A stretch of DNA of 37,097 bases, taken from the IMG/VR virus record IMGVR_UViG_2563366877_000001. One strand, 5' to 3'. The translations under genes and the position numbers were made by a program. Below the pieces are notes generated by a model. It was given only the letters and a program-made list of their open reading frames with translations. It made no database searches and was not told the origin of the DNA. Source of the DNA: a virus (Duplodnaviria; Heunggongvirae; Uroviricota; Caudoviricetes). Below, piece by piece: positions 3,366 to 36,212 of the stretch. Every line of letters begins with the position of its first letter. The stretch's first letter is position 1.

Positions 3366-3463
3366 CTTCCATTAATCCCTGAATTGTTGGTTAATACGCT
3401 TGAGGGTGAATGCGAATAATAAAAAAGGAGCCTGTAGCTCCCTGATGATTTTGCTTTTCATGT

Positions 3464-9309: not shown

Positions 9310-10239
9310 ATGGCAAACACTGCTGAGATATTCAATTTTCCAGTGCCGGATGTGGCACAAAAGGAGCCGCGCGTGGCAGATCTCGATGATGGTTATACGC
9401 GCATTGCAAATGAGTTGCTGGAAGCTGTGATGCTGGCCGGATTAACACAGCACCAGCTTCTGGTCTTCCTGGCTGTCATGCGCAAAACATATGGCTTTAA
9501 TAAAAAACTGGATTGGGTGAGCAACGAGCAACTTTCCGAGTTGACCGGGATATTGCCGCACAAGTGTTCTGCTGCAAAAAGTGTTCTGGTAAAGCGTGGG
9601 ATTTTTATTCAGAGCGGGCGGAATATCGGCATTAATAATGTGGTCAGTGAATGGTCAACATTACCCGAATCAGGTAAGAAAAATAAAGTTTACCTGAAAG
9701 AGGTAAATTTACCTGAATCAGGTAAGAAAAGTTTACCCAAATCAGGTAAAGGCGTTTACCCGAATCAGGTAAACACAAAAGACAAACTAACAAAAGACAA
9801 TATAAAACCTTTTTCGTCCGAGAATTCTGGCGAATCCTCTGACCAACCAGAAAACGATCTTCCTGTGGAGAAACCAGATGTTGCAATTCAGAGCGGCAGC
9901 AGGTGGGGGACAGCAGAAGACCTGACCGCCGCAGAGTGGATGTTTGACATGGTGAAGACCATCGCGCCATCAGCCAGAAAACCGAATTTTGCAGGGTGGG
10001 CTAACGATATCCGCCTGATGCGTGAACGTGACGGACGTAACCACCGCGACATGTGCGTGCTGTTCCGCTGGGCATGCCAGGACAACTTCTGGTCCGGTAA
10101 CGTGCTAAGTCCGGCCAAACTCCGCGACAAGTGGACCCAACTCGAAATCAACCGTAACAAGCAACAGGCCGGCGTGACAGCCGGAAAATCAAAACTCGAC
10201 CTGACGAACACTGACTGGATTTATGGGGTGGATTTATGA
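9310..10239 (+). CDS. O: replication initiator O (lambda O-like N-terminal domain)
   Basis: N-terminus (NFPVPD...VADLDDGYTRIANELLEA...RKTYGFNK) aligns to lambda O; start chosen at ATG 9310 (GGAGG 4 nt upstream); alternative coupled start at 9220. Contains the ori iterons. Confidence 0.85.
   Translation: MANTAEIFNFPVPDVAQKEPRVADLDDGYTRIANELLEAVMLAGLTQHQLLVFLAVMRKTYGFNKKLDWVSNEQLSELTGILPHKCSAAKSVLVKRGIFIQSGRNIGINNVVSEWSTLPESGKKNKVYLKEVNLPESGKKSLPKSGKGVYPNQVNTKDKLTKDNIKPFSSENSGESSDQPENDLPVEKPDVAIQSGSRWGTAEDLTAAEWMFDMVKTIAPSARKPNFAGWANDIRLMRERDGRNHRDMCVLFRWACQDNFWSGNVLSPAKLRDKWTQLEINRNKQQAGVTAGKSKLDLTNTDWIYGVDL
9661..9772. repeat. origin of replication iterons (ori) inside the O gene
   Basis: Four copies of the 17-bp TTACCYRAATCAGGTAA at 9661, 9709, 9733, 9756 plus a degenerate copy at 9690, followed by an AT-rich tract (9773-9815), as in lambda ori. 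Confidence 0.7.
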
Positions 10240-10937
10240 AAAACATCGCCGCACAGATGGTTAACTTTGACCGTGAGCAGATGCGCCGGATAGCCAACAA
10301 CATGCCGGAACAGTACGACGAAAAGCCGCAGGTACAGCAGGTAGCGCAGATCATCAACGGTGTGTTCAGCCAGTTACTGGCAACTTTCCCGGCGAGCCTG
10401 GCTAACCGTGACCAGAATGAACTGAACGAAATCCGCCGCCAGTGGGTTCTGGCTTTCCGGGAAAACGGGATCACCACAATGGAACAGGTTAACGCTGGAA
10501 TGCGCGTAGCCCGTCGGCAGAATCGACCATTCCTGCCATCACCCGGGCAGTTTGTCGCCTGGTGCCGGGAAGAAGCATCTGTTAACGCCGGGCTGCCAAA
10601 CGTCAGCGAGCTGGTTGATATGGTTTACGAGTATTGCCGGAAGCGTGGCCTGTATCCGGATGCAGAGTCTTATCCGTGGAAATCGAACGCGCATTACTGG
10701 TTGGTTACCAACTTGTACCAGAACATGCGGGCCAATGCGCTGACTGACGCGGAATTACGGCGCAAGGCTGCCGATGAACTGACCTGTATGACAGCGCGAA
10801 TTAACCGTGGTGAGGCGATACCTGAACCAGTAAAACAACTTCCTGTCATGGGCGGTAGGCCTCTAAATCGTGCACAGGCTCTGGCGAAGATCGCAGAAAT
10901 CAAAGCGAAGTTCGGACTGAAAGGAGCAACTGTATGA
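10236..10937 (+). CDS. P: replication protein P (DnaB helicase loader)
   Basis: 233 aa, near-identical to lambda P as recalled. Confidence 0.95.
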   Translation: MKNIAAQMVNFDREQMRRIANNMPEQYDEKPQVQQVAQIINGVFSQLLATFPASLANRDQNELNEIRRQWVLAFRENGITTMEQVNAGMRVARRQNRPFLPSPGQFVAWCREEASVNAGLPNVSELVDMVYEYCRKRGLYPDAESYPWKSNAHYWLVTNLYQNMRANALTDAELRRKAADELTCMTARINRGEAIPEPVKQLPVMGGRPLNRAQALAKIAEIKAKFGLKGATV

Positions 10938-11107
10938 CGGGCAAAGAGGCAATTATTCATTATCTGGAGACGCACAAGAGCTTCTGTGCGCCGGACGTTG
11001 CTGTGACAACAGGTGTGACATTAACCAGCATAAATCAGGCTGCGGCAAAAATGGCGCGGGCAGGAATCCTGGTCATTGATGGTAAGGTCTGGCGAACGTT
11101 TGTTTAA
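10934..11107 (+). CDS. ren: Ren-like protein, C-terminally truncated (57 aa)
   Basis: Not in ORF track. MTGKEAIIHYLETHKSFCAPDVA... matches the lambda Ren N-terminus; AAGGAG Shine-Dalgarno; ends early relative to the 96-aa lambda Ren. Confidence 0.6.
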   Translation: MTGKEAIIHYLETHKSFCAPDVAVTTGVTLTSINQAAAKMARAGILVIDGKVWRTFV

Positions 11108-11253: not shown

Positions 11254-11748
11254 ATGAGAAAATTTATTTTAGCCTTTGTTATAAGTGCCTCGTTTACAGC
11301 AAATGCTGGTGTAGAGAAGTTAGGGCCGTGGATAACAAAGTCTGAGATAAATAAAATGACTGACCAGACTGACTTTGTGGCTCTTAATTTATCACCAGAT
11401 TCATATAACAAAGCAGGTACTGATCGTGCAACTTCACTGGTGTTGCGTTGTAGTGATAACAAAACAGATGCCTATTTATCATTCAATGATTATATGGGTT
11501 CGGACAACCCAAGAATTACAGTGCGGTTAGATGGCGGAAAGCCGGTCAAGAGTGTTTGGGGAGGTGGGGAAGGCGGTGATTCTGCATTTGCTCCACAACC
11601 AATACAATTTATAAAGACCTTGGCTAAGCATAAAAAAGCTATTTTTGGGTTTGAACCTTATGGATCAACTATGCAAGTAGTTGAGTTTGACTTGTCTGAG
11701 ATTGATAAGGTTGTGGAAAAAATTTCACAGTCTTGCAATTGGAAATGA
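11254..11748 (+). CDS. exported hypothetical protein (moron)
   Basis: 164 aa with cleavable signal peptide (MRKFILAFVISASFTANA); AT-rich codon usage unlike neighbours; followed by a terminator. Confidence 0.6.
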   Translation: MRKFILAFVISASFTANAGVEKLGPWITKSEINKMTDQTDFVALNLSPDSYNKAGTDRATSLVLRCSDNKTDAYLSFNDYMGSDNPRITVRLDGGKPVKSVWGGGEGGDSAFAPQPIQFIKTLAKHKKAIFGFEPYGSTMQVVEFDLSEIDKVVEKISQSCNWK

Positions 11749-11767
11749 CAAAAAAATTTCATATGAA

Positions 11768-11790
11768 CCCAGTTGGCGCTGGGTTTTTTA
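11768..11790 (+). terminator. rho-independent terminator
   Basis: CCCAG-ttggcg-CTGGG stem-loop followed by TTTTTT directly after the exported-protein gene. Confidence 0.6.
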
Positions 11791-12791
11791 TTTCAGTAGC
11801 CAATAATGCATTCAAAATCTCTTACTTGAGAAACGGCCTATTTGAGATTTCAGTCGTGGCAGGATGATCAGTTGATTCGAGTATTGACGCATTTGCGTTC
11901 GGAGCGATTACAGTAGATTGTAAATAATAATGAGAAACACATAGCCACATAGCCACCCCGTGGTATTGAAACCATATAATGTTGGATTTGAAAACAGATC
12001 TTTTCCCATGTATTAATAACTACATCCCCGCGAGTAATTCAAAAAGGAGGGCCCAATTTTGTCCGAGTTTTTGTATTCCCCCGCATGCCGCTGCGGAGCA
12101 CTACATCTGAGTGTCTGACTAGGGGATAAAATTAGACTGGATAGTGAGAAGAAAGTGGCGCGCTAGGCTGTGCCGAGTGCTACCAGTACACCTTGGGGGT
12201 GTGCAGCTTTCGCCGAGACTGTAGTGGGTATCGGTTAATGCACGAAAAACCGAGAGGTCAGACAACCAATTTGCCGTAGGATTGTTTCCGGTGCGATACC
12301 GGTCTACTAACTGAAAGCAATGCGAAAAAGCATAAACTCGGTCCTTCAGTCGCCCTACACACTATTTACTAAGAAGGGCTGAAGCATGGATACAATTATT
12401 ACATGGATGGGAGATCGTCTGTTGGGGGGACACAAAAATCCGATCTGCGGCAGATGGCGATCACTGGATTAACTTCCGCGATTTGTTCAACAATTTTGTA
12501 CACTGAAAAATTAAAACATGGTGAGCCTATTAACCCAAACGAAGAAGAAAAACTTTATAGGCTTTGGTATGAAGGAAACGCTTGAAAGAATAAAGCACAA
12601 TTAAAACCTTTGATTTGCGATAATCAACTTGCCATAATTAAGTAATCGGAGCCTGAACAACTCCGGTGACTTCTGCGCTAAACGGGGACGTTTATGCGCA
12701 CATACAATCCAAACTATCTTCTCCTTTCACAGATGCAGAAATGCACCTGCAATTCTTTGCATCTAGCGTTTGACCTCTGCGGAGGTGAAGC

Positions 12792-13247
12792 GTGAACCTC
12801 CCACAAGACGGCATCAAATTACATCGCGGCAACTTCACCGCTATCGGCCAGCAGATCCAGCCTTATCTGGAGGAAGGCAAATGCTTTCGCATGGTGCTTA
12901 AACCGTGGCGCGAGAGACGCAGTCTTTCCCAGAATGCACTCAGCCACATGTGGTACAGCGAAATCAGTGAATACCTCATCAGCAGGGGTAAAACGTTCGC
13001 CACTCCAGCTTGGGTAAAAGATGCTCTCAAACACACATATCTCGGTTATGAAACCAAAGACCTGGTTGATGTCGTAACCGGTGATATCACCACTATCCAG
13101 TCGTTACGCCATACCTCCGATCTTGATACCGGAGAGATGTATGTCTTCCTGTGTAAGGTTGAAGCCTGGGCGATGAATATTGGTTGCCACCTGACTATTC
13201 CACAGAGCTGCGAGTTCCAGCTGCTGCGCGACAAGCAGGAGGCGTAA
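12792..13247 (+). CDS. ninB: NinB-family recombination protein
   Basis: 151 aa with the R-S-L-x-Q-N motif shared with lambda NinB; GTG start with GGAGG Shine-Dalgarno. Confidence 0.7.

Positions 13248-33524: not shown

Positions 33525-36212
<2,688 letters not shown>

Follow-up and report, generated by a model that had tools for sequence, protein, structure and literature searches.

A long gap between the replication genes and ninB

The window, as we call the whole stretch of 37,097 nucleotides analysed here, is a lambdoid prophage in which ORFs of at least 70 aa cover 92% of the 37 kb. Its largest gap without such an ORF spans 11749-12791 (1043 nt; the runner-up measures 378 nt) and has the start of ninB (ybcN), at 12792, as its right edge. 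An earlier note, made from the sequence alone, had reported about 1 kb without a credible ORF at this place, and the ORF listing bears this out: the longest ORF in any frame is 60 aa. The note was also right that the gap is not low-complexity sequence, with a GC content of 37-50% and an 8-bp duplication as the sole tandem repeat found by TRF. The features of the locus are the following:

10236-10937: replication protein P gene, on the upstream side of the gap
10934-11107: ren, truncated to 57 aa, directly after P
11254-11748, + strand: TagO/VasI-like exported-protein moron gene (Pfam VasI match; PGAP name TagO, T6SS-associated)
11765-11786, + strand: intrinsic terminator of this moron (terminator scan)
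11830-11916, + strand: remnant of an antirepressor-family (P22_AR_C / Rha-like) gene, the last 28 codons and the stop, with an in-frame TGA before them
11938-11956: 8-bp tandem duplication CACATAGC (TRF and alignment), one copy more than in phage Turner
11970-12016, + strand: predicted promoter region of the RNA (-35 TTGAAA at 11988-11993, 17-nt spacer, -10 TATTAA at 12011-12016)
12023-12355, + strand: structured non-coding RNA core of 333 nt, folded into two domains that together hold 18 helices (RNAalifold, pair counts, alignments A3 and A5)
12386-12604, + strand: pseudogene of the ORF118 family, PHROG 12412 (alignment with PEC1011 and Turner, PHROG matches)
12609-12795, + strand: lambdoid pre-ninB segment (putative -35 at 12610-12615, putative -10 at 12633-12638, inverted repeat at 12642-12670)
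12694-12795, + strand: orf33, overlapping the ninB start

The exported-protein gene to the left is a self-contained moron: it encodes a signal-peptide protein, has its own terminator, and shows a GC content of 34-45% against 50-58% in the replication genes upstream; its insertion site is the position behind the truncated ren. The terminator that the earlier note had put at about 11790 is the one that the scan places at 11765-11786.

Gene remnants and a lambdoid control segment around the core

For the gap itself, the earlier note had offered a large non-coding RNA, a regulatory site or a decayed gene. Each of the three occurs, in a segment of its own, and what did not hold up is a single RNA of 1 kb: the gap is a mosaic of two gene remnants, a lambdoid control segment and a central RNA gene, not a single element. 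In megablast searches against complete E. coli genomes and phages it splits into pieces of differing history. Apart from the last 183 nt, it was found at full length in about 150 E. coli genomes and in the phages Turner and IdasGreatGrand. We take the block to be a recombination mosaic, lying in a moron hot spot that extends from the replication genes (P, truncated ren) to ninB.

On the left, positions 11830-11916 align with the C-terminus of Turner ORF107 at 64% identity and 86% positives; ORF107 in turn matches Pfam P22_AR_C (E=1e-15) and the PHROG family 'anti-repressor Ant'. In tblastn, the same stretch also matches the C-terminus of a Klebsiella phage Rha protein. These matches point to homology with the C-terminal part of P22_AR_C / Rha proteins, as a remnant only, and it is at this remnant that the DNA alignment between the window and Turner begins.

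On the right, the pre-ninB segment is widespread: numerous lambda-like phages and over 2000 E. coli genomes carry it at 89-94% identity. In the phage 82 record X92588, to whose positions 49-231 it is 91% identical, the annotation gives a putative promoter and orf33, plus an inverted repeat called a 'possible regulator-binding site'; these features map to 12610-12795. The promoter scan also reports a promoter-like match in this segment. The 183 nt at 12609-12791 are ordinary lambdoid sequence.

Between the core and this segment lies the only ORF that the ORF listing of the gap had offered, that of 60 aa at 12403-12585. The earlier note had doubted that it is a gene because it lacks a convincing start context. 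The ORF exists, and it turns out to be the wreck of a real gene: alignment with E. coli PEC1011 and Turner reveals a 118-aa gene, intact in phage Turner, which in the window has lost one G from the G-run at 12424-12429, causing a frameshift, and has undergone a 134-bp deletion between TTGGTATGAAG direct repeats (junction 12564-12574), so that the conserved C-terminal half is gone. The window copy aligns base for base with the intact Turner gene and with a 66-aa truncated form in E. coli, WP_000379697. Compared with PHROG 12412 and PHROG 8527, to which the ORF118 family corresponds, the window copy has an extra frameshift and is without the conserved C-terminal half; because its frame is broken by the 1-nt loss and the 134-bp deletion, we treat 12386-12604 as a pseudogene and not as a member gene.

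The ORF118 family (PHROG 12412) comprises 21 protein clusters in Escherichia, Enterobacter and Obesumbacterium and is under clear purifying selection. Its AF2 model is a four-helix bundle (pLDDT 80), for which Foldseek returned only generic helical bundles (E>0.4) and no informative structural neighbour. Rop is a four-helix bundle protein that binds RNA kissing complexes; the resemblance of ORF118 to it may be suggestive and is only an analogy. ORF118 recurs next to the RNA in three RNA clades and four genera. Distant homologs (51% identity; L210 300-656 and L213 201-557) lie near DNA_pol3_theta-like and integrase genes, with the RNA absent. Because each is found without the other, RNA and ORF118 are not strictly interdependent.

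Both flanks of the RNA core are thus decayed. The earlier note had reasoned that a recognisable frameshifted gene, brought up by translated searches, would speak against an RNA; such remnants were found in the flanks, and none in the core.

A rare RNA family of constant length

Between window and Turner, the core differs at 4 of 334 positions, compared with roughly 8% in the ORF remnant and 17% upstream. In two Klebsiella phages a segment 78% identical to the core is found between genes that are different on both sides. We gathered further loci by exact-pattern scans of IMG/VR and metagenomes and by look-ups around ORF118 homologs. The resulting family counts 87 loci with 31 distinct variants in six clades, diverged by up to 26%; all 31 variants are 331-333 nt long with fixed internal spacing. 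The hosts are prophages of E. coli, Klebsiella, Enterobacter and Obesumbacterium.

The RNA is a rare accessory element. Of 5426 complete E. coli genomes, 159 (about 3%) have it, always in one copy and never with a PGAP annotation at the site; it is also present in 4 of 50,697 phage records, and a plasmid collection yielded no match. An exact 19-mer met only chance matches, in unrelated phyla, among species-representative genomes. A covariance-model search of 80 Klebsiella-type NinB loci returned one copy and no distant relatives, and on the window the covariance model R1 gives one match only, of 356.8 bits.

Does the RNA belong to a described family? At gathering score, Rfam 15 finds nothing anywhere in the gap, and the window core remains without match at E<=10. 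The L062 variant has only chance-level matches to unrelated sRNA families (E=5-10), while for L003 most matches are to terminators and the others, such as SNORA27 and bxd_5 (on the opposite strand), lie elsewhere in the core at chance level. A literature search that included sequence strings found no description of the RNA in full text outside the subscription literature; a preprint on the Pas sRNA proved unrelated. We therefore treat the RNA as an undescribed family, as no Rfam 15 family was found in three divergent variants and no description in the literature. Elsewhere in the prophage, at 34584-34706 on the minus strand, there is a full-length match to isrC, an Hfq-binding sRNA (150 bits, E=7e-37).

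Fold and covariation

In the alignment, invariant blocks alternate with variable blocks that change in pairs. The consensus fold computed with RNAalifold has 99 base pairs in 18 helices, arranged in two domains: the 5' domain is closed by AUCCCC/GGGGAU, the 3' domain by GAYUGG/CCAGUC. The following elements are discussed individually:

12099-12104, + strand: kissing-loop arm 1, CACUAC in the P5 hairpin loop, pairing with 12221-12226
12221-12226, + strand: kissing-loop arm 2, GUAGUG in the P12 hairpin loop
12113-12120, + strand: candidate pseudoknot arm GUCUGACU, the perfect complement of GGUCAGAC
12256-12263, + strand: candidate pseudoknot arm GGUCAGAC, the complement of 12113-12120
12288-12302, + strand: hairpin CCGGU-GCGA-UACCGG (CCGGTGCGATACCGG), variable, helix 17 of the consensus

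The secondary structure is kept by compensatory substitutions beyond what relatedness accounts for. As a control that preserves relatedness, the 3' partners were slid by 1-3 columns. Across 23 sequences, standard pairs fill 96.7% of the cells, compared with 34-45% in the slid controls; changes on both sides of a pair are seen at 20 pairs and in 145 cells, compared with 2-6 pairs and 7-23 cells. The covariation score was reached by none of 500 shuffles, and an earlier set of 16 sequences gave the same picture, although the covariation rests on few independent events because the family is narrow (Enterobacterales prophages only, six clades). Many of the alternations, A-U with G-U and G-C with G-U, fit the plus strand only. 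The Rfam scan and covariation analysis that the earlier note had proposed have thus brought out strong covariation in 12023-12355 and no Rfam family. Single-sequence folding energy was not better than that of shuffles (z = -0.5, both strands examined) and is for this reason uninformative. Conserved fold, plus-strand orientation and constant length are accordingly established properties of this RNA.

A screen for further conserved complementarity brought up two contacts. The kissing loop, of 6 bp, exists in three covarying versions (CACUAC/GUAGUG, CGCAAC/GUUGCG and CACCAC/GUGGUG), with 98.6% of cells pairing and three pair types at one position. The other contact, an 8-bp complementarity between the two domains (GUCUGACY/GGUCAGAC), has nearly invariant arms whose sole variation is C-G to U-G; lacking two-sided covariation, it is a candidate pseudoknot only. 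The inverted repeat that the earlier note had picked out, CCGGTGCGATACCGG, sits exactly at 12288-12302 and is a genuine RNA hairpin whose closing pair covaries (AU in 14 sequences, CG in 6, UA in 3). Outside the pairs, 68 of 136 unpaired columns are invariant. The window copy itself departs from its clade consensus at two pairs, which are non-canonical (A-C at 12036/12078 and U-C at 12286/12304). Given these two pairs and the decayed ORF next to it, this copy may be drifting.

The core does not code for protein. No frame is open in all its variants, variable columns fall on the three codon phases 57/50/49, without codon periodicity, and searches of every frame against Pfam and PHROG gave no match. 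One minus-strand ORF stays open for 110-111 codons in two clades; we rejected it, as it is broken in the other four, shows no periodicity and matches no protein family. Within the RNA, AAGGAGG at 12044-12050 (+) is a perfect Shine-Dalgarno sequence; 8 nt further on, an invariant UUG at 12059 opens a frame of 19 codons that runs to an invariant UGA (12116-12118) and is kept in 21 of 23 variants. As a gene, this micro-ORF (12059-12118) was discarded: its variable sites number 5/5/4 at the three codon positions and fall on RNA pairs, and on this reading of alignment A5, without third-position bias, the peptide is not constrained. The Shine-Dalgarno sequence and short frame at 12044-12118 could be a ribosome-binding feature or a coincidence.

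Predicted transcription signals and changing neighbours

Promoter and transcript ends can be predicted from the sequence. The start should lie at about 12022-12024, and the first helix begins at the predicted +1. Position of the hexamers and the 17-nt spacing are kept in 25 distinct upstream sequences while the spacers diverge; across the clades the -35 reads TTGAAA or TTGTAT and the -10 is A/T-rich. That the promoter is missing from the list of the consensus scan is explained by its deviating -10. Upstream of the -35, a motif ACCATAT-N-TTG...GTTGAA (11970-11987, +) is conserved in most clades, at the same offset also in L062, L057, L211 and other loci. It could be a UP element or a regulator site; an operator-like second copy was not found elsewhere in the window.

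At the other end, all variants share the 3' end CAGUCGCC, which in some clades is followed by terminators of different sequence. About half of the variants are without terminator and run straight into an ORF. This is the arrangement in the window and its E. coli relatives, where ORF118 begins about 30 nt after the RNA. In L053, RNA and terminator are directly followed by a core nin gene.

The neighbours change from clade to clade. Upstream there are TagO-like, antirepressor, MazG-like, methylase and other genes. Downstream, the cargo is ORF118 or proteins of 183 aa, 177 aa, 95+162 aa, or a membrane protein of 181-191 aa; searches of the cargo proteins against Pfam, PADLOC and PDB sequences returned nothing. 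The 183-aa protein (L003 5385-5936) has an RxxxxH motif, the 177-aa protein of L060 and L182 starts with IIIDSNAW and looks PIN-like at first glance, and that of 181-191 aa in L059, L061 and L062 has hydrophobic segments at both termini. Judged by such features, the cargo genes are possible toxins or exclusion factors. The RNA is independent of any one neighbouring gene. Because neighbours vary on both sides, we regard it as an autonomous RNA moron, and because upstream genes, downstream genes and terminators all differ among clades, the unit that travels would be promoter plus RNA.

Some loci stand out by their surroundings. In a prophage of Obesumbacterium proteus (L208 1795-2636), about 840 nt without a called gene separate the P gene from the RNA. 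A prophage from IMG/VR (L045, around position 3371) has an RNA that breaks off after about model position 309, and the DNA beyond the cut encodes what we take, from its N-terminal sequence, to be an IS21-family transposase (IstA-like). Phage Turner (L002) carries at 1128-2654 a 508-aa protein that, from its N-terminal motif, is presumably a large serine recombinase; its gene is inserted in the nin region, where a lambdoid phage would not usually carry a recombinase, and is closely followed by the truncated antirepressor gene and the RNA. Finally, the invariant GACUGGAUAGUG (12135-12146, +) is perfectly complementary to 12 nt of ninB mRNA (13091-13102, +). We rejected this pairing: chance alone predicts about 0.7 matches of this kind in the window, and the residues of ninB at this site are not conserved in Klebsiella.

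Discussion

We consider 12023-12355 to be, with high probability, an autonomous non-coding RNA gene of 333 nt at the centre of a recombination mosaic. In the model we propose, the RNA would be transcribed rightward from its own sigma-70-type promoter and would fold into two multi-helix domains, joined by the 6-bp kissing interaction and probably also by the 8-bp pseudoknot. In related phages it would end at an intrinsic terminator; in the window and the E. coli relatives it would run on into ORF118. The folded RNA may then act in trans, as a scaffold or decoy that binds protein or RNA, or as an RNP, and, expressed from the prophage, could serve in prophage-host or phage-phage conflict as other nin-region morons do.

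How do known phage RNAs compare? Like GOLLD and ROOL, the RNA is a large multi-helix molecule with tertiary contacts, a sporadic prophage accessory, and presumably transcribed on its own. GOLLD and ROOL measure roughly 600-800 nt. The RNA described here has about 333 nt, gives no sequence or structure match to them with the Rfam covariance models, occurs in lambdoid prophages of Enterobacterales instead of mainly in Firmicutes and other phyla, and keeps a fixed place between replication and nin genes. With the P22 sar, P1/P7 c4 and P4 CI RNAs it shares that it is phage-encoded and non-coding and would have its own promoter; moreover, its ancestral upstream neighbour in the E. coli clade is an antirepressor-family gene. 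Those immunity RNAs are antisense or base-pairing regulators of about 70-80 nt, whereas the 333-nt molecule found here has a complex fold and is encoded on the same strand as the ant-like gene, downstream of it. No meaningful complementarity between the two was seen, and in other clades an unrelated gene stands upstream. Two further types of phage and defence RNA found no counterpart: type III toxin-antitoxin RNAs (ToxI-like) are tandem direct repeats beside an endoribonuclease toxin gene, and here the core has no tandem repeats and its varying neighbours no PADLOC match; and no reverse-transcriptase-like ORF, as in retrons or DRT systems with their ncRNA, lies within 2.5 kb in any surveyed locus.

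But could the RNA act in cis instead? The main rival to a role in trans is a leader, riboswitch- or attenuator-like, that would control the next cargo gene through a terminator or through access to the RBS. In most variants, the order of promoter, structured RNA, terminator or RBS, and gene is indeed that of a riboswitch or attenuator: the RNA always lies directly upstream of a variable cargo ORF on the same strand, across a gap of 30-70 nt or an intrinsic terminator, and its adjacency to ORF118 in three clades and four genera would find an explanation, with persistence of the RNA without ORF118 read as reuse with other cargo. The conserved 3' tail GUCGCC can pair with the 3' arms of terminators and with GGC-rich sequence before the ORF118 start, and where no terminator follows, as in roughly half of the variants, a leader would suit the arrangement no less than a stand-alone RNA. 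Within the E. coli clade, substitutions that break helices are confined to the lineage with a truncated ORF118, which includes the window, though the counts are too small for significance. Against such control in cis, terminators and linkers differ between clades, no conserved alternative pairing or expression platform is seen, and in two of four variants the spacers fold no better than shuffles. L053, with RNA and terminator before a core nin gene, is a variant without cargo. The cargo proteins, mutually unrelated and without Pfam or PADLOC match, do not make up a coherent regulated gene set, and a molecule of 333 nt and 18 helices far exceeds known leaders; we know of no riboswitch or attenuator leader as large as this RNA. 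On balance we judge a cis-acting leader to be unlikely, if still a serious contender.

Other functions, and the lack of any, have to be weighed as well. Large bacterial RNAs this structured are often catalytic or ribonucleoprotein cores, and the invariance of 68 of 136 unpaired columns, the multi-domain build with kissing loop and candidate pseudoknot, and the strictly constant length would all suit the catalytic core of a ribozyme or self-processing RNA. Such a core is nevertheless improbable in our assessment, for there is no similarity to the ribozyme families of Rfam, and neither a flanking exon context nor a conserved processing-site signature was recognised. The HK022 put RNA and EAR, elements of processive antitermination that make polymerase terminator-resistant, are likewise structured RNAs that follow a promoter in an early operon of a phage and precede terminators; here polymerase would read through the RNA's own terminator and those of the nin region. 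It would agree with this that the element is promoter-proximal in the early-right operon, with the nin genes and Q still to come, and that a strong terminator and then genes often follow. However, the RNA shows no put or EAR similarity in Rfam and is four to five times their size, and constitutive read-through toward Q from a prophage would be dangerous; we hold antitermination to be quite improbable. There remains the view that no functional RNA exists, the core being decayed coding DNA, a minus-strand gene or a DNA-level site, and its structure an artefact of relatedness. That both flanks are gene remnants, that two clades have a minus-strand frame of 110-111 open codons spanning the core and that the MFE z-score is unremarkable would be expected on this view. 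It fails to account for a minus-strand frame that is broken in four clades without periodicity or protein-family match, for the drop in the slid controls, which keep relatedness, to 34-45% of cells paired, where the actual partners give 96.7%, and to 7-23 compensatory cells instead of 145, for G-U alternations that are strand-specific, and for a core much better conserved than the flanking remnants. We give it hardly any credence.

We favour fold-based action in trans, because the RNA is an autonomous unit followed by interchangeable generic terminators, and half of its unpaired columns are invariant in a molecule with tertiary contacts. Nothing in the analysis pointed to a partner or target, and the role in trans is our best guess; for the scaffold or decoy mechanism in particular, which is a guess, we would put the weight at somewhat under half. 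That the RNA represents an undescribed class of large RNA with tertiary structure, an autonomous lambdoid moron that would form a ribozyme or RNP core in phage conflict, with ORF118 possibly its original partner, is a proposal that we see as evenly balanced.

What does this mean for lambdoid prophages? One third of the gap is a new structured RNA gene, for which the support is strong; what remains is decayed cargo along with standard lambdoid control sequence. The unannotated RNA explains why a gap recurs at this place and why spurious small ORFs are called in it, such as the six "hypothetical proteins" in phage Turner. Large bacterial RNAs with complex conserved tertiary folds are rare, and the known ones tend to be ribozymes or ribonucleoprotein cores; here, what would be a new orphan RNA class has gone without annotation in about 3% of the complete genomes of E. 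coli, the best-studied bacterium, as well as in Klebsiella prophages, where genetics is easy and the function of the RNA can be tested directly in tractable hosts. More generally, phage morons can be RNA genes, and the "non-coding gaps" of prophages merit covariation analysis instead of dismissal as decay.
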